The position numbers were made by a program, and so were the translations under genes. Source: Eledone cirrhosa (taxonomy: Eukaryota). From it: a DNA stretch of 64,000 nucleotides. Position 1 is the stretch's first letter, and each line of letters begins with the position of its first letter. The DNA is taken from the NCBI GenBank assembly GCA_964016885.1, contig OZ024743.1:128030001-128094000 (forward strand). Direction: 5' to 3'. Under the pieces are notes generated by a model. That model did no database searches. It was not told the DNA's origin and saw nothing but the letters and a program-made list of their open reading frames with translations. Positions 16,328 through 62,760 of this stretch are shown piece after piece.

Positions 16328-17890
16328 TTATACTTCTCTTAGGTCAGTGTTGTTTGTTTGGGTGTTGTTGTTGTTCCACTCATTCTTTCTGTTTAGCTTT
16401 GGTCTTCTAATTTCTATTTCACTGGCCTCTCTGATTTGCCTATCTGCTGGGTCATTCCTATGTTTAGATATTATTCTAATTTCTATGTTGTCTATGTTAC
16501 CGTCATGATGTTGTCTAGCATGTTCGTATAGTACTGACCCGTTTTTTCGTCCTTTTAGTTCCCCCCAGTGTTGGTCTATCCTTTCACCTATGCTACGAGC
16601 TGTCTCACCTATGTATGTTGTTGTCGTGTTTCTGCAAGTACCCTCTGTACATCTTATGCTATAGACTACGTTTCTAGTTTTACAGTTTATCCGGGGGTTC
16701 ACCTTACATATGATACATTTCCTATTGGTACAGTGGGTTTTCTTAAAAGGGTAGGTTTTGCTGATCAGGGATTTTATGGTGGTTCCTGGCTTTTCTACCA
16801 CCTTTATTTTTAAGTGGGTCTTTCTCAGGGCCTTTCTACACTGGTTAGCTAATTTCCCTCCAGGGGTGGCGTCCACAAACATGACACTCTGATATCTCTG
16901 GTTGTCGTACCATGATGTGGCCTTCCCTATCTTATGTCTAGCCCTATCTAAGCTATTCCATGATTTGCTCCTGTATAGTGGGCAAATTCCTTTCATGTCC
17001 AGTTCTATGAGGGTCTTATACTTTTCCATGGCTCCTTCGTATACTCTGACTCTGTCTCTTTGGTTGTAGCCAGAGAACTGCATGCGGTTGATGAAGTGTT
17101 GGATGTGTCCTTCCATTTCTGTTGGGTCGCACATGCTGGACACATTCTTCATCACTCGTACCAAATCTGCGATCAAAATATTAAACTTAGCACTACTGGA
17201 CATTGCTGAGTTTTTGAGTATCAGGTATTTGGAGGCCATGGGTTTAGCATAGTGTGAGTGGAGAATTTGGGCTCTCTCGTCTATAGTGTTAATCCAGAGT
17301 TCTGTGTCTAATACAGGTAGTCTATTGTTAGGGTGTTTGGAAGGGAAGTCTATAGTTACAGTTATACTCTGGTGTATGGAATTAGCTATCTGCTGGATGC
17401 TTTCCATCGTGCTACGTTCTAAATCAAACTTGTTAGTGCTCTCTAGTGGGGGTGTTCTTATAACTATATTGATATCGTCTACATAACGAGAGTACATGAT
17501 GAGGTCTATGGAGCTTTCATTAAGGAGATCTTTAAGTCTCCTTTCCCACCATACCATGAAAAGGTTGGCAACATCGCCAGCTATGCTGACGCCGATGGCT
17601 GCTCCCTCATTTTGGGTGTAGATTTTCTCATTGAACTTAAATATGTGGCCCTTTAGGGTAGTTTTGATACTAGCCCCTATTGCATGTGCGACCATTTTTC
17701 TTACCTGATCAGTGTTTTGGGGGGTCCGTATAGCTTTGGTCCACCCAATCCACCTTCCTATGGGAGTCTTTTTAGCCATTGAGGTTATGGTGGGGGGTCT
17801 ACCTCTTATAGGTCTACTAGGGCAGAAACATCTAAGGTCATGGCTGTCTAGGTAGTCAGTGTCGTAGGTAAGTCTAAGTAGGAGGCCCAG
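16328..17890 (-). CDS. Penelope-like reverse transcriptase plus C-terminal GIY-YIG endonuclease (uninterrupted, 5'-truncated)
   Basis: [22 protein letters not shown], Cys linker (CTNRKCIIC...C), NVVYSIRC...[33 protein letters not shown]. The frame stays open upstream of the listed Met to the (TA)n edge ([10 protein letters not shown]...[15 protein letters not shown]). Confidence 0.95.
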
Positions 17891-25178: not shown

Positions 25179-25982
25179 TAATTGTTTCTACCTTTGGCAC
25201 AAGGCCAGCAATTACCCCAGTGCATTACTAGTGCTTTATTTTATCGATCCTGTAAGGATGAAAGGCAAAGTTTATCTCGACGGGATTTGAACTCAGAACG
25301 TAAAGGGCTATAACTCTATGCTGCAAAGCATGGTGTCTGACGCTCTACCGATACTTCCAATCCACCACGAGTTTGCAATATTTAATACTTCGCAATTAAT
25401 CAGATTTATGGAGCTAGTATTTGACACACTTGAAGATAATATTTGGCTATTTTGACATATGAGGTAATATATACGAACAAGCCTTCAAGAAATCAGTTAT
25501 GCTCTGAAAATTGAGAAGTGTTGATGTTTTTACATTGTAATTAAATCTTGCCATTAATTAAAAAATATTTTTTAGTAAAGTAATATGACAGGAATTGGCA
25601 GTATCGGTAGAGGGTCGGACGCCATGCTTTGACGCATAGAGTTACGACCCTTGCCATTTCTGAGTTCAAATCCCTCCGAGGTTAACTTTGCCTTTCATCC
25701 TTACGGGGTCGATAAAATAAAGTACCAGTAATGTACTGGGTAATTGCTGGCCTTGTGCCAATAGTAGAAACAATTATTACTGGAAAATAAGGGCGGTGGA
25801 TTGGCAGTATCGGTAGAGGGTCGGACGCCATGCTTTCCAGCATAGTTACGTCCCTTTACGATCTGAGTTCAAATCCCGCCGAGGTTGACTTTGCCTTTCA
25901 TCCTTACGGGGTCGATAAAATAAAGTACCAGTAATGCACTGGGTAATTGCTGGCCTTGTGCCTAAAGTAGAAACAATTATTA
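25179..25982. mobile_element. Three family 1 SINEs (25179-25368 minus; 25594-25780 and 25791-25982 plus)
   Basis: Consensus A/B boxes. The last copy sits at the tail of the previous one with ACTGGAAAAT duplicated. Confidence 0.92.
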
Positions 25983-26397
25983 CTGGAAAATTTTTCAATA
26001 CGTGTAGTAAATGTATAATCGAAATTGTTACAATTTTAAAATTTATTTATTTTAAAATCAACTAAACAAATTACCTCTTATGTATATAGAAGGTCTCTCT
26101 TCTACTTTGACGCACATTAACATACATGTAGGTTGCGCTTTCATAGCAGTCTCAAGTAATTTCCAGTTGCGTAGATCAGCGAGTTTAATCACTAGGAACA
26201 GGGTCATATTTCACTGGTTGGGTTGTGTTTCTTATTAAATAATATGTTTCTTATGTATTCTACATGGTGAAACCAATGAATTTTCCGAATTTCTTTGTCT
26301 CCCATATTTTTCTTGGTCCAAAATAATAATGGCCAATTAATCGATAAAATGGCCGATATAGTCGATGCCGAATAGCTGATGATTAACCGGAGCAACC

Positions 26398-26441
<44 letters not shown>

Positions 26442-26834
26442 AAGTATATAAATGTGGTTGGTGTTAGAAAGGGCATCTAGCTGTAAAATACTTGCCAGCG
26501 ACACGTCCATACAAGCGAGATACAGTCTCCCAACCATTCCCGCATCAAATGGAACAAAACCGTCTAACCCATGCTAGCGTGGAAGATGGACGTTAAACTA
26601 TGATGATGATGATGACAAGTAAGTATGTTTTTGAAAGAGCGAGTGAGTTTGAAATTAGAAATAGAAGATTTAGCCGTACTTTTTACTAAAATGGAAAAAG
26701 ATGAGTATTGACGTAGACGGGAGTCGACTGCCATGTACGTCAATACTCATCTTTTTCCATTTCTTAGAGGGTTCTAAACCCCACTATCAGTATAAATTTC
26801 TTTAGTCAAAAATACGGCGAAAGCTTCTAATATG

Positions 26835-30289: not shown

Positions 30290-30509
30290 CCCTCTTCCTG
30301 CTATATCAAGCGTTAACCTAATATATCCCTTCCATATACTGTACCAATTGTATTGTTATTTCTGTTTACCTTGTCAATACTTATCTTTTTCCATTTCTCT
30401 GAGGGTTCTAAACCCCACTATCAGGCTAAAATTTCTTTCGTCAAAAAATACGGTGAAAGCTTCTATTTTCTAATTTCAAACTTGCTCGCTGTTTCAAAAC
30501 ATACTTACT

Positions 30510-30583
<74 letters not shown>

Positions 30584-31519: not shown

Positions 31520-32212
31520 ACAAAGAGCTTTATCGCTCTACATGGCTGAATACAAGAAATGTAAATCTGAGCTTTTCAAATATTAATAATAATATTCGAT
31601 TCATTTGCAATTATGCAAACAGCCTCTTTAAGCCATGTAAGTAGAATGACCCGTCATTCTTACTCTTGTGTTGGCATATAAACAGAACTGAAGACACTAA
31701 TGTTTCTGGGTGATTACCCTTCATCAGGACCGTATACTGCTTCCCTGCCAACTGTCAGAGCTAACTATTTTTTAGTTGTTTAACTATGGCAAAGCCGGCC
31801 ATTAATCGCTCGTATACATGGAACTGACTGGCCTATCTGCTGATATGCAAATCTGGCTGATCAGTGGAGCTGCTAATATGCAGATCTGACTGAACAGCCA
31901 GTCTGCTAATATGCAAATCAGGTCGATCGGTCACTGTATATTCCATAAAATATCATATATTTTCACTAACTCTGACAGTTGGCACGTAAGCAGTATACGG
32001 TACTGATGAAGGGTAATCACCCAGAAACATTAGTGTCTTCAGTTCTGTTTATATGCCAACACAAGAACAAGAATTATGAGGTCATTCTATTTACATGGCG
32101 TAAAGAGGCTGTGTGCATAATTGTAAACGAATCGAATATCATTATAATTGCTGGCCTTGTGCCAAAAGTAGAAACAATTATTAATATTCGAAAAGCTCAA
32201 ATTTACATTTCT
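31519..32212. mobile_element. Fold-back element with HHR-like cores in both arms and a triple octamer spacer
   Basis: Arms about 31540-31772 and 31966-32212 each carry CTGATGA agggtaatcaccca GAAA ca ttag tg TC (helix I poor). The spacer has three approx. 33 bp repeats with ATGCAAAT/ATGCAGAT. Confidence 0.75.
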
Positions 32213-32378
32213 TATATATATATATATATATATCAAGTAAGAATATTTTCGAAACAGCGAGCGGGTTTGAAATTATAAATGTAAGCTATCGCCGTATTTT
32301 GACTAAAGAAATTAAAGAAAATTATTTAGCCTGATAGTGGGGTTAAGAACCCTCGGAGAAATGGAAAAAGATGAGTAT

Positions 32379-32449
32379 TGACGTACATGGGAGTCGAACC
32401 CACATCTTTGGTTATCCAGACCACTGTGCTACCATTACACCAACACATC
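32379..32449 (-). tRNA. tRNA-like cloverleaf (Gln-like D arm, GGA in the anticodon position) inside a repeat element; probably not a translating tRNA
   Basis: GATGTGT TG GTGT AATGGTA GCAC A GTGGT CTGGATA ACCAA AGAT GTGGG TTCGACT CCCAT GTACGTC A. 71 nt, four stems pair, TTTTT about 10 nt downstream. Confidence 0.7.
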
Positions 32450-32650
32450 ACCTGTCTTTTTCCATTCGAATTAGAAGCTATAATCTTAGAAACTGTAAAT
32501 GTCAAGTAAGAATATTTTCCATTTCTCCGAGGGTTCTTAACCCCACTATCAGGCTAAATAATTTTCTTTAATTTCTTTAGTCAAAATACGGCGATAGCTT
32601 ACATTTATAATATATATATATATAGAGAGAGAGAGAGAAGATATTTATAT

Positions 32651-33868
32651 ATGAATATAGACATAGAATATTCGAAAATATTCTGTATGTTTATAATAAA
32701 CATTTTGAAGACCTAATCGCTATAGAATAGAATACGTCACGTATTACAATTAGATTCTCGATAAAAGCAAGGGAAGTAAATCTACGCGTTTCATTCTCGT
32801 TAGAAATCGTCAGGACTACATATCCAGTGCTTTTATCGAGAATGACACAGCTAGAGACTTATAGAATACTTAGCTGTGTACAGGAACTGGTTTGAAAGAG
32901 CGGTTGCCGGTCCGGCAGAAATTAGAAATTGGAATAAATGCTCTGAAATAGCGATATATATGTGAATATAGACATAGAATATTCGAAAATATTCTGTATG
33001 TTTATAATAAACATTTTGAAGACCTAATCGCTATAGAATAGAATACGTCACGTATTACAATTAGATTCTCGATAAAAGCAAGGGAAGTAAATCTACGCGT
33101 TTCATTCTCGTTAGAAATCGTCAGGACTACATATCCAGTGCTTTTATCGAGAATGACACAGCTAGAGACTTATAGAATACTTAGCTGTGTACAGGAACTG
33201 GTTTGAAAGAGCGGTTGCCGGTCCGGCAGAAATTAGAAATTGGAATAAATGCTCTGAAATAGCGATATATATGTGAATATAGACATAGAATATTCGAAAA
33301 TATTCTGTATGTTTATAATAAACATTTTGAAGACCTAATCGCTATAGAATAGAATACGTCACGTATTACAATTAGATTCTCGATAAAAGCAAGGGAAGTA
33401 AATCTACGCGTTTCATTCTCGTTAGAAATCGTCAGGACTACATATCCAGTGCTTTTATCGAGAATGACACAGCTAGAGACTTATAGAATACTTAGCTGTG
33501 TACAGGAACTGGTTTGAAAGAGCGGTTGCCGGTCCGGCAGAAATTAGAAATTGGAATAAATGCTCTGAAATAGCGATATATATGTGAATATAGACATAGA
33601 ATATTCGAAAATATTCTGTATGTTTATAATAAACATTTTGAAGACCTAATCGCTATAGAATAGAATACGTCACGTATTACAATTAGATTCTCGATAAAAG
33701 CAAGGGAAGTAAATCTACGCGTTTCATTCTCGTTAGAAATCGTCAGGACTACATATCCAGTGCTTTTATCGAGAATGACACAGCTAGAGACTTATAGAAT
33801 ACTTAGCTGTGTACAGGAACTGGTTTGAAAGAGCGGTTGCCGGTCCGGCAGAAATTAGAAATTGGAAT
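32651..33868 (-). repeat. Tandem array of 3.9 x 311 bp hammerhead-containing units (retrozyme-like)
   Basis: Unit starts at 32653, 32964, 33275 and 33586; copies look identical. HHR at 32776-32819, 33087-33130, 33398-33441 and 33709-33752 (gtagtc CTGACGA tttctaacgagaat GAAA cgcg TA gatttac). Confidence 0.92.
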
Positions 33869-34010
33869 ATATACATATACATATACACACATATATACAT
33901 ATGTATACATGCATACACACACATACACGTATATATATGTGTGTGTGTGTGTGTATGCATATATACTTGAGAGGGATTCTTCTCTAAAGACCTTCTGCTG
34001 TCCAGCTCGC

Positions 34011-36795: not shown

Positions 36796-36800
<5 letters not shown>
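36398..36800 (+). mobile_element. 1.2 copies of a 328 bp diverged retrozyme-like unit
   Basis: 75 bp direct repeat at 36398 and 36726, blocks collinear with the 311 bp unit, and an HHR-like motif at 36595-36640 (gtagtc TTGATAA acgc aaaaga gcga GAAA caacg TA tt gattac). Confidence 0.75.
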
Positions 36801-36835
<35 letters not shown>

Positions 36836-36838
<3 letters not shown>

Positions 36839-37983
36839 AATATAGACATAGAATATTCGAACATATTCTGTATGTTTATAATAAACATTTTGAAGACCTA
36901 ATCGCTATAGAATAGAATACGTCACGTATTACAATTAGATTCTCGACAAAAGCAAGGGAAGTAATCTACGCGTTTCATTCTTATTAGAAATCTTCAGGAC
37001 TACATATCCAGTGCTTTTATCGAGAATGACACAGCTAGAGACTTATAGAATACTTAGCTGTGTACAGGAACTGGTTTGAAAGAGCGGTTGCCGGTCCGGC
37101 AGAAATTAGAAATTGGAATAAATGCTCTGAAATAGCGATATATATGTGAATATAGACATAGAATATTCGAACATATTCTGTATGTTTATAATAAACATTT
37201 TGAAGACCTAATCGCTATAGAATAGAATACGTCACGTATTACAATTAGATTCTCGACAAAAGCAAGCGATTAGGTCTTCAAAATGTTTATTATAAACATA
37301 CAGAATATGTTCGAATATTCTATGTCTATATTCACATATATATCGCTATTTCAGAGCATTTATTCCAATTTCTAATTTCTGCCGGACCGGCAACCGCTCT
37401 TTCAAACCAGTTCCTGTACACAGCTAAGTATTCTATAAGTCTCTAGCTGTGTCATTCTCGATAAAAGCACTGGATATGTAGTCCTGAAGATTTCTAATAA
37501 GAATGAAACGCGTAGATTACTTCCCTTGCTTTTGTCGAGAATCTAATTGTAATACGTGACGTATTCTATTCTATAGCGATTAGGTCTTCAAAATGTTTAT
37601 TATAAACATACAGAATATGTTCGAATATTCTATGTCTATATTCACATATATATCGCTATTTCAGAGCATTTATTCCAATTTCTAATTTCTGCCGGACCGG
37701 CAACCGCTCTTTCAAACCAGTTCCTGTACACAGCTAAGTATTCTATAAGTCTCTAGCTGTGTCATTCTCGATAAAAGCACTGGATATGTAGTCCTGAAGA
37801 TTTCTAATAAGAATGAAACGCGTAGATTACTTCCCTTGCTTTTGTCGAGAATCTAATTGTAATACGTGACGTATTCTATTCTATAGCGATTAGGTCTTCA
37901 AAATGTTTATTATAAACATACAGAATATGTTCGAATATTCTATGTCTATATTCACATATATATCGCTATTTCAGAGCATTTAT

Positions 37984-37990
<7 letters not shown>
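36836..37990. repeat. Second retrozyme-like array, 310 bp units, 1.4 copies inverted against 2.3 copies
   Basis: Orientation switches at about 37266. HHR at 36961-37003 (-), 37478-37520 (+) and 37788-37830 (+): gtagtc CTGAAGA tttctaataagaat GAAA cgcg TA gattac. Confidence 0.92.
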
Positions 37991-38064
<74 letters not shown>

Positions 38065-48286: not shown

Positions 48287-50133
48287 GCACACATACACAT
48301 CCATACATACAATACATATATACACACATACACACAAACATATTCACGTACATTGACCCGCTTACACGCACACACATAAAAATAAAAATGTAAAAAACAT
48401 AGATATAAAAACACAGATATAAAAACACACATACATACACATATATATACACGCACGCACGCGCGCATACGGAGGCGTTCGTGTACATATACAGAACGTA
48501 TACACACATAAAGACGCTCAGACACATAGATACAGGGTGTAAAGCAGCCTTATGAATAAGTCAGTACAAATATAAAAATATAAAATTGACTGCGAAATAA
48601 CAGAAAATATCTGGAGTGGAAAACGCAAGTGACTTTCGTAATCAGGTAGTAAAGAAAATAGGGAAGTAAAAAGTGGAAAGTGAAGATATTAGGTAAGTGA
48701 ATTGAAGGATAAAGGGGGGGGGGGGTTACTGGTGGATGTGAAGTAAAAATAAAAATAAAAATAAAATTAATAATAAGGTTAAAAATGAAAGTAAATCAGA
48801 AAGAGTAGTCTTTAAAGAGAATAATTTAAGTGAAGAATAAGAGCTTATGGAGGATAAGTATCTGAAAGTGAGTTAAGTTTATATGAGCTGGAAAGCAAGT
48901 ATGATTTCATGTGTGGGCAACTGGTGAAAATTTCTGTCTTTGTATTTAGGCAGGTTTTTGGTGATTTAAGGTTTTGTAAAATCCAATATTTTTCATTTAT
49001 GCAGAGTGTGCATTTTCTTGTTCCTCTTGCATATTCTTTAGATTGGTTCAAAATTGACCAATCCAATTTATATTGGATACCTTGGTCTTTCAAATCCCAT
49101 ATTCTGCTAGCCAGAGCTGTTGTGAATCTTTTTTCTGGATGTCGAAAGGATGCGACATGTGAGTAATAACGCGTTTTGAACTTGTCTTGTGTCATACCCA
49201 CATATCGTTCACTGGTGGCTGGTTGGTTGTTGCTGATGGTTGTCACTTTAGCCGCATATACAATGGCTTTGGTGTTGCATTTACCTTGTAATGGGCATTC
49301 ACTTTTGACTCTACAGGAGCAATTTTGATGTTCTCTAGGTGATTTTTTGTTGATGATATAAGATTTAATAGGGGGACCGCAGGAGTAGCTAATTTTGACA
49401 CAGTTTCTATTAAAGATCTTATAGTATCTATGTGTTCTAGGGAAAATGTTTATCTAAGAGCTCTAGGAATTTTTTGCCTACATTAGTTTTAACTGCTAGA
49501 GAGTAGGGGGTGTGAACCAGATTATTTTTCTTTTCCTATTTTTATGTTTAAAAGAGTTAGTATAGTTGGGTATGTATTTAATCGGTTCGCTAAATCCGCT
49601 ATTTAGGAGGGCTTTATTATAGTAGAGGGATGCCTTATTGAAAATAGCTTCTGAGGAAGAGAGGGTGGAGATCCTACGGCTAATATTAGGGAATAAGGTT
49701 TTTAAAAACTATAGGCGGATGGCAAGAGGCTTTATTTATATATTTTAAATTTTCATTAGGTTTATGGTATGGTTTATAAGAAGCAGTAGGTAAATCTAGG
49801 TTTATATCTAGGAAATTAACATTAGAAAGGTTAGTGTCAATAGTAATTTTAAGATTAAAACTAGCAAAGGTTTTTATTAAGTCTTTCCTTAATCTATCTA
49901 AGTTATGGCCTATGGTGGTATGGGAAAGTATTAGACCATCGTCGCGATAAAGTCCAAAAATATGGTTAGGGAATGTTTCTTTAAGTGTGTGTAGGAGGAA
50001 TAGGCCGACTAAATCACAAACATCAGCACTATGAAAAGAGCCCATTGAGACATCGAATGGGCTCTCTGGGTTAGATATTTTTACCCAAGTGTCATTATCA
50101 GTAAAGAGTAGAGTGTTTCTAGCGTGCAAGATG

Positions 50134-50138
<5 letters not shown>
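47361..50138 (-). mobile_element. 5'-truncated Penelope-like element (Hydra-clade-like) in (TA)n, frameshifted
   Basis: RT: FDVSMGSFHSADVCDLVGLFLL, GLYRDDGL, VNFLDI, PYHKPN..YIN..SCHPP. Endonuclease: CSCR..CPLQGKC..IVYAAKV..YVGMT..FKTRYYSH..CTLCINEK..LN..E..SCPH. Approx. 1.4 kb 3' UTR. Clade assignment is from memory of motifs. Confidence 0.92.
47461..47538 (-). ncRNA. Type I hammerhead (CCGACGA core, U4C) at the PLE 3' end
   Basis: attgccttgt CCGACGA a cgaat..attcg g GAAA cc ttt gg TA atgaggtaat; 10 bp helix I with three G-U pairs. Confidence 0.78.
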
Positions 50139-61900: not shown

Positions 61901-62760
61901 TCTATAGATTATAGATACTTCCAAAAAATTCTTTCTTTTTGTTTATAGCGTTCTTTCCTCAATACACAAATGACAAATTCTTGAGAGAGCCATATTTCGG
62001 TATGCGTGCGCTTTCGAAATCGTTCTCCAAGAGATTGAATAGTCAATATTATTGTCTTTTAAGTACCAAATTAGATATGAACGTGATGTTGAGAATTTTT
62101 TTGTCCGAACTATTAAATGTGTGTTTATGATTATACCAGCGTTCCTTAAATTTTATAGAAGTGGCTCCTATATAGTTAAATAATTTATCTCTAGTTTTTA
62201 CTGTGCATTTGTATACTAAGTTTTTATCTAGACAATTATTCTGTAAAGGGCAACTTAATTTGTTTCTACAGTTACATTTTCTAGAGTTGTTGTCTATAGG
62301 AACGGTTGGGTTATTATTAGTATTGTTATTAGTAATATTATTATTGCTATTATGGTTTATTTGGGTTGGGATTAATTTTAAGTTTCTATTATTAATTCTA
62401 TTAATATTTTGTGCTAATGTTCATAGTATTAGAGTAAGATAGTTTGATAGTATGCCTGTTAAAAATAGAGTGGTATCTATGGGATATAGGAAAACACTTA
62501 TCTAATGCTTTGAAACATAGGTTTGCTAAAGGTGTTTTCATTCCTAATGAGATTGGAGGAGAGTACAAAATTATATTTCTAGTTCTAGTTTTTTTGTTTG
62601 ATTTATTATTTAGGTTAATTTGCTTATTATTAATATTATAGTAAATTTTAGGATGATTTTGCATGCTATTATTATCTATGTTTCATTTTATTCATCTAAC
62701 CAGCTCTATGTAAAGCATCATTGTAATATTCTGCCTTATTATCAAATATATTTTTATTGA
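58955..62760 (-). mobile_element. Decayed Penelope-like element (Hydra-clade-like), probably with a long 3' UTR split by a Helitron
   Basis: 61900-62660 encodes RTRNIILYSPP..CFPISHRYHSIFNRHTIKLSYS and CNCRNKLSCPLQNNC..LVYKCTV..YIGAT..FKERWYNH. A family A HHR lies at 58997-59058 on the same strand. Continuity across the Helitron is inferred. Confidence 0.7.
59411..60959 (-). mobile_element. Non-autonomous Helitron with approx. 700 bp cargo
   Basis: Both ends match the 23374-23877 element (5' TCTATATATAAAACTGAGG, 3' CCCGTGCAACGCCGGG hairpin); internal duplications and a GC-richer insert at 60010-60720. Confidence 0.85.

Follow-up and report, generated by a model that had tools for sequence, protein, structure and literature searches.

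The insertions of endonuclease-positive Penelope-like elements (PLEs) are characterized, in the part of Craig et al. (2021; PMC8557442) drawn on here, by partial tandems, an inverted and 5'-truncated copy and a tail of 30-40 bp, a shape which the corresponding part of Frangieh et al. (2024; PMC11167929) explains by two internal reverse transcriptase (RT) start sites together with the cutting of both strands. In the same portions of these two papers (PMC8557442; PMC11167929), octopus Naiad and Hydra PLEs are listed as inserters into (TA)n. The 64-kb stretch of DNA analysed here (the window) carries an insertion of comparable shape in a TA microsatellite, the unit of which contains a complete tRNA-like cloverleaf. 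Its features, together with two older relatives, are as follows.

32213..32233, unstranded: left target microsatellite, (TA)n (from the sequence and an unbiased sample of outer ends)
32234..32519, minus: long arm, comprising a full 269-bp unit (32234-32502) and the first ~17 nt of the next unit
32234..32271, minus: PLE-type tail of 38 nt separating the long from the short 3' end (from the clustering of arm ends)
32359..32376, minus: trailer, positions 76-93, which pairs with the leader (fold z -2.8; duplex against shuffles)
32365..32369, minus: T5 run, a potential Pol III terminator, within the trailer helix
32379..32449, minus: complete tRNA-like cloverleaf of 71 nt (Rfam and ARAGORN)
32390..32400, minus: B box and T arm, with A58 at 32394 (from the sequence)
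32415..32417, minus: GGA in the anticodon position (ARAGORN)
32431..32442, minus: A box and D arm (Rfam alignment)
32450..32467, minus: purine-rich leader, -1 to -18, complementary to the trailer
32515..32611, plus: short inverted arm, 5'-truncated at about trailer position 84 and ending at the short 3' end
32612..32624, unstranded: right target microsatellite, (AT)n (from the sequence)
26616..26826, unstranded: older relative of the D type, with two arms both stopping in the T loop
30373..30512, plus: older relative with a single arm, which breaks off at tRNA position ~70 and whose long end adjoins (TA)n

Insertion footprint and extent of the family

The sense of the element lies on the minus strand with the 3' end at 32234. 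An earlier note on this DNA, made from the sequence alone, had described a repeat that restarts after 269 bp and then folds back, and both observations were confirmed: the first 18 nt of the unit recur at 32502-32519, and the inverted arm of 97 nt at 32515-32611 is perfect, being 100% complementary to the long arm, to which it is joined via a 5-nt microhomology. The relatives noticed at that time do exist, at 26616-26826 with a fold-back centred in the T loop and at 30373-30512, and show 81-95% identity.

The family falls into six subfamilies (A1, A2, B, C, D and F) whose median non-CpG divergence from their own consensus is 2.4-6.7%. In the whole genome of 3.0 Gb, exact matches numbered 7,492 and 6,213 for two 3' motifs, 3,404 for tRNA positions 61-79 and 856 for a 24-mer in the D and anticodon arms, the counted patterns differing in length and control patterns giving 0-6 matches; subfamily F accounted for at least 492 motif matches. 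The tRNA is missing from most arms, and no tRNA-less relative was found among 52 arms anchored on a shared 3' motif.

The outer ends of the arms cluster at two positions of the unit, ~1-5 and ~37-41, the two 3' ends being spaced by 38 nt in A, B and D and by ~60 in C. Among 69 two-armed insertions, 62 combined a long with a short end, six had two long ends and one had two short ends; 83 loci had one arm. In the unbiased sample 67 of 75 outer ends were followed by (TA)≥3, as against 70 of 210 control windows. The extent of 5' truncation was variable, tandem and inverted arms both occurred, and tandem junctions were seamless, with arrays of up to ~10 units that share rare variants. Opposite arms also had rare variants in common (29 shared to 320 unshared, compared with 178 to 21,185 between loci, a ~10-fold difference) and thus both derive from one template or source. 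The element itself ends in neither an A-rich nor a simple-repeat tail, and ~55 nt of its upstream flank are conserved. This footprint identifies the tRNA strand as the sense of the element; furthermore, the PLE-type ends, the tandem and inverted arms and the (TA)n targets match the published PLE pattern and support the suggestion of a non-autonomous, possibly PLE-mobilised family. We regard mobilisation of the PLE type as highly probable.

No 3'-end match to an autonomous PLE was found in the window and the sampled loci or in the 52 arms, and a comparison by eye with two published octopus Naiad ends revealed no likeness at the 3' end; we therefore infer the partner PLE solely from the shape of the insertions. 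Clustering of the TA-adjacent ends collapsed to one 888-member cluster and was uninformative. Fragments of PLE open reading frames (ORFs), in which RT and C-terminal GIY-YIG-like motifs were recognized by eye, lie at 16328-17890, 48845-50138 and 62049-62420, all on the minus strand, and the piece at 49686-50138 resembles, again by eye, published Hydra-clade RTs. A Pfam search with the ORFs of the window returned no PLE family match. A 4-bp hairpin in the region 32468-32490, ~11 nt past the long end, is a candidate RT-start signal; its stem is shared by the consensus sequences of A1, A2, B and C, which differ in the 6-nt loop, and the copy in the window is mutated.

A hidden or rearranged hammerhead was not found either by Rfam, which gave no hammerhead match, or by searching the consensus sequences for the core CUGANGA, which was absent from both strands of A1, A2, B and C and, as judged by eye only, from D and F. 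Hammerhead-like cores were seen by eye in two neighbouring repeats. One is a fold-back element directly to the left (31520-32212), which has such a core in both arms, below the Rfam threshold, and also has a long and a short end, the latter sharing a few bases with the short end of the tRNA element. The other is a 311-bp tandem and inverted repeat family (32643-33875 and 36796-38013), inserted in the same TA tract, with the core on the minus strand. An abundant SINE-like repeat of 190-400 bp occurs at 25594-25998 and in about ten other places in the window.

The cloverleaf and the leader-trailer helix

Both programs agreed with the earlier description of a 71-nt cloverleaf with A and B boxes at 32379-32449 (minus strand): Rfam RF00005 matched with 49.7 bits over all 71 model positions, and ARAGORN called Ser(GGA), which is the sole tRNA call within the 64 kb. 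The cloverleaves of the other subfamilies score 38-54 bits, above the Rfam cut-off for tRNA. Three G-U pairs in the acceptor stem (U3:G70, G6:U67 and U7:G66) and a short variable loop of 4 nt are present as had been described, the loop being short despite the Ser anticodon. The D arm, which had been likened to that of tRNA-Gln, does match host tRNA-Gln except for one inserted base, but the D-loop of host tRNA-Trp is equally long and the likeness is therefore not decisive.

The anticodon, whose conservation had been proposed as a check, is not conserved: it is GGA in A-D and GGC in F, and C replaces U33 both in F and in one branch of A2 (11 of 129 loops). The cloverleaf is thus not a decoding tRNA. 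Position 37 is U, not a purine, in subfamilies A-D, and neither the anticodon loop nor the isotype body is that of a functional cytosolic tRNA gene. The fold itself is preserved between subfamilies, as the reading of the cloverleaf as a family trait supposes, for A1 and F are identical at 62 of 71 positions in the tRNA compared with 77 of 115 in the 3' flank, and all four of their differences in stems keep or gain a pair, the remaining five lying in loops. Formal covariation, the other check that had been proposed, did not reach significance (136 of 500 shuffles, with 14 real copies). The stem changes are one-sided, and in subfamily C the top of the acceptor stem is disrupted so that a canonical acceptor end is lacking. 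At the level of single copies the mutation rate is about equal in tRNA and flanks, as expected for dead copies. ADAR editing as a source of the G-U pairs was rejected for these copy-level changes, which showed no strand bias (A>G 18.3 versus T>C 17.3 per 1000).

The closest candidate donors among 59 distinct tRNAs were phage tRNA-Trp(CCA), identical at 49-55 of 71 positions and retrieved by a pattern derived from the query itself; of the same 71 positions, host tRNA-Gln shared 47-49, host tRNA-Trp 45 and the GGC tRNA of another repeat 45. Stricter patterns gave no match in metagenome, prokaryote and viral contigs, and blastn against phages gave weak Met/Trp matches only (E ≥0.02 among the 20 of 102 records listed). 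Because the stricter patterns were empty, the blastn matches weak and the phage candidates pattern-selected, we do not claim a bacterial or phage origin of the tRNA.

The repeat with the GGC tRNA is a second, unrelated non-coding repeat of ~1.7 kb that carries an internal whole tRNA (67 bits) with an F-like anticodon loop (e.g. locus L167, 774-2073; also L163 and L165-L173), followed by T4 and by eye with apparent leader-trailer pairing; it makes up 10 of the 16 tRNA matches in a genome-wide Rfam search. In a tandem cluster of host tRNA-Gln genes (~168.22 Mb), several copies have a CTA (amber) anticodon, which ARAGORN reports as 'Pyl', and are possibly suppressor-like or pseudo tRNAs.

Outside the cloverleaf, the purine-rich leader (-1 to -18) and the trailer (76-93) form a helix that prolongs the acceptor stem by ~18 bp past a 3-nt bulge. 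In A1, A2, B, C and F none of 500 shuffles gave as good a duplex, and for the poorly sampled leader of D 23 of 500 did. Where the leader differs between subfamilies, the change is mostly A/G opposite U, and F has lengthened both strands of the helix in a coordinated manner by one pair. The TTTTT that had been placed just downstream of the cloverleaf is indeed found at 32365-32369, but it starts 10 nt after the discriminator and sits inside the helix, which runs 6-7 nt beyond it; in F the run is T6, and F has two T6 runs. The supposition that transcription 'terminates immediately' was not sustained, as the T run is paired in a stem and every mobilised copy needs RNA reaching ~90-130 nt past T5. 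Expression of a small tRNA mimic likewise found no support, the T run being paired and the loci examined containing no CCA-tailed copy, no tRNA-excised copy and no tRNA-less join of leader to trailer.

Truncation at the T loop

In order to score truncation, arms were collected by means of a motif that lies downstream of the tRNA and were counted if they reached position 73. In the subfamilies with A58, 39 of 59 arms stop within tRNA positions 55-73 (A 14/26, B 12/15, C 8/12 and D 5/6), and the same holds for 21 of 24 further non-F arms obtained with another anchor motif. In subfamily F, which has U58, 3 of 58 arms stop there (Fisher p about 1e-12 against the A58 groups), in what is a single evolutionary comparison of one lineage, where F differs at G59 and in the flanks as well and paired arms of an insertion are not wholly independent of each other. 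On its upstream side the pile-up ends sharply, with 18 of 81 arms stopping at 55-60 and none at 48-54, in a set in which some F arms, namely the seven at 37 and one or more at 60, were scored against the A-D consensus.

Compared with A-D, F has identical bases at 61-79 and more Watson-Crick pairs, but carries U58-G59 in its T loop. As F shows no pile-up despite the same positions 61-79, neither palindromes nor plain secondary structure accounts for the truncation peak of the A58 groups, and the cause is something that requires A58; a palindrome-driven bias in the position of junctions was rejected on the same grounds. Stops peak at 63-64, where AT and CATG microhomologies lie, which is consistent with cDNAs that halted at the T loop and were then trimmed. 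A58 is retained in 144 of 150 read-through copies of A-D.

Recognition of the T loop is the likely basis of the truncation, and m1A58 specifically seems to us marginally favoured as its cause. In the part of PMC8599865 drawn on here, m1A58 brings a retroviral RT to a stop in vitro, and A58 itself, according to the relevant part of PMC10882958, helps to maintain the contact between D and T loops; methylation, the tertiary elbow and cleavage in the T loop are thus possible alternatives behind the dependence on A58. Against methylation, read-through copies show no excess of substitutions at position 58 (6 of 150), and several arms take in G57-A58 before they stop, one to two bases past the textbook m1A stop. 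Taken together, the stops suggest that the template RNA was folded and probably m1A58-methylated like a real tRNA. Stops at 10-22 were seen in 12 of 44 arms of F and 1 of 16 of A-D, which is not significant (p 0.15); their position fits the offset expected of an m1G9 block.

RNA start, competing readings and known systems

Among 82 D-arm-bearing arms, 19 end at -10 to +5, 11 at -11 to -48 and 43 run past -48. The pile-up at -10 to +5 has a p of 2e-4 for a window chosen post hoc; both arms end there in several insertions, and many 5' ends keep 3-10 nt of leader attached to the tRNA. On tRNA genes, Pol III starts ~10-14 nt upstream of the cloverleaf. The A and B boxes of the element are intact in A-D. 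We infer a candidate Pol III start around -10 to -14, and that the cloverleaf serves as promoter appears slightly better than an even chance. The contrast that had been drawn with SINEs is thereby reduced, as the pile-up of 5' ends agrees with a Pol III start of the SINE kind just upstream of the tRNA. Host tRNA genes are followed by T runs of comparable length, and the mobile RNA must therefore be either a read-through minority or the product of another polymerase. For F, whose B box is damaged (U58) and which bears two T6 runs, read-through by Pol III is an unlikely source of the template and another polymerase a likely one; as F spread nevertheless, promoter function cannot be the sole use of the tRNA.

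The explanation that we favour, and hold to be reasonably probable, is that of a protein-less mobile repeat of ~270-290 bp with PLE-type ends, a tRNA fold, an RT and endonuclease borrowed from a PLE and a SINE-like Pol III promoter. Pol III would start ~10-14 nt upstream of the cloverleaf in A-D, and a minority of transcripts would pass T5 and so carry both internal RT start sites. The PLE enzyme would cut both strands of a TA repeat and copy one RNA from both ends, whereupon the two cDNAs would join via microhomology. Most templates would be folded and modified as a tRNA, with m1A58 as the most likely modification, and would stall the RT at the T loop, while whole-tRNA copies and tandem units would come only from unmodified templates. 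The leader-trailer helix may protect the RNA against trimming by RNase P and RNase Z. More tentatively, and with a probability that we place somewhat short of even, this may be the first instance of a PLE enzyme moving a SINE-like element, with the tRNA mimic in place of the hammerhead, host tRNA modification acting as a restriction via m1A58, and F an escape variant that is stopped further up. If this is true, m1A58-halted copies would constitute a genome-wide fossil map of RNA modifications.

Alternatively, the tRNA fold might act as an RNA-level module in the hammerhead's stead: long transcripts of tandem units, made by Pol II or by read-through, would be cut or protected at each cloverleaf, and the helix would hold the ends of a monomer together in a circle, nicked or ligated, that is copied round by the PLE RT. 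MALAT1 mascRNA, with its RNase P-like cutting, offers a parallel. Such a module would fit the retention of fold and helix in F despite the damaged B box and the T6 runs, the lengthening of that helix by one pair, its reach past the T run, the entry of about half of the D-arm-bearing arms (43/82) into the preceding unit, and the seamless junctions, shared rare variants and ~10-unit length of the arrays. However, RNase P cleavage at +1 would not yield 5' ends with 3-10 nt of leader, the loci examined held neither a tRNA-less leader-trailer join nor a CCA-tailed copy, subfamily C has no canonical acceptor end, and the excess of 5' ends at 74-95, on the RNase Z side, is not significant (17/76 versus 7/65, p 0.08). 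We consider this reading unlikely.

The loss of the tRNA from most arms and the drift of the anticodon loop would also agree with a captured passenger in a non-autonomous PLE derivative, for which truncation at the T loop would be a functionless cost and whose leader could be a local inverted copy of the trailer. Yet a module that truncates about two-thirds of cDNAs should vanish unless needed, and all six subfamilies retain it; moreover, the tRNA is more conserved than its flanks with four of four stem changes pair-compatible, and the 52 arms on the shared 3' motif included no tRNA-less relative, so that a mere passenger is decidedly improbable. An ordinary LINE-mobilised SINE or a tRNA-gene satellite with palindromes made at the DNA level, for which the tRNA-derived head with A and B boxes and some long tandem arrays could be cited, is largely refuted by the two fixed 3' ends, 38 nt apart, of opposite arms, lacks agreement with the missing A-rich or simple-repeat tail, the ~55 nt of conserved upstream flank and the dependence of truncation on an RNA-level feature, and has hardly any probability left.

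On the explanation that we favour, a protein-less repeat moved by a PLE enzyme, the SINE/LINE model of parasitism would extend to PLEs, and small PLE-dependent elements would need no ribozyme. The A58/U58 pair of subfamilies is a ready test both of whether tRNA modification restricts retrotransposition and of cDNA joining by a PLE RT. In this genome, at least 856 exact D-arm copies, and cloverleafs estimated to number a few thousand, will appear in annotations as tRNA-Ser(GGA) genes. The open-licence literature yielded neither a PLE-mobilised, tRNA-bearing element, of which an entry could exist in Repbase, Dfam or SINEBase, nor a modification-dependent truncation of a retroelement.

With endonuclease-positive PLEs and with Chlamys elements that are themselves non-autonomous, MRC1 for example, as far as described in the portions of PMC8557442 and PMC11167929 drawn on, the element shares 5' truncation, partial tandems, the inverted arm, a tail of 30-40 nt at one end, (TA)n targets and two internal RT start sites, but it has no ORF, contains a whole tRNA-like gene and has no detected 3'-end homology to an autonomous element. 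Metazoan non-LTR retrozymes (Cervera and de la Pena, 2020, PMC7229834; Li et al., bioRxiv 10.64898/2026.07.22.740005), in the parts of these reports considered, resemble it in their non-coding tandem unit of 150-450 bp, size class, insertion shape and proposed PLE dependence; the element, in contrast, carries a tRNA fold, and no sense-strand hammerhead core was present in any consensus tested. The tRNA-derived SINEs, including molluscan ones, that are treated in the part of PMC4758252 used here likewise have A and B boxes, an unrelated 3' body and a start just upstream of the tRNA (a candidate one in the element), whereas they are LINE-mobilised with target site duplications and A-rich or repeat tails and the element has PLE-type ends, a conserved upstream flank and an intact cloverleaf. 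Closest among the described cases is a SINE-like repeat of schistosomes that combines a Pol III promoter with a hammerhead, for which the relevant part of PMC6765202 gives, in Schistosoma Sm-alpha and Sj-alpha, a tandem SINE-like unit and a need for read-through as in the element, although these carry a hammerhead and the element a full cloverleaf and leader-trailer helix and no ribozyme. The element stands outside the retrozymes, as it has no ribozyme, outside the classical SINEs, as it has PLE-type ends, and outside functional tRNA genes; it probably works as a retrozyme-sized, non-autonomous PLE derivative in which a tRNA mimic replaces the hammerhead and which is SINE-like in its probable promoter.
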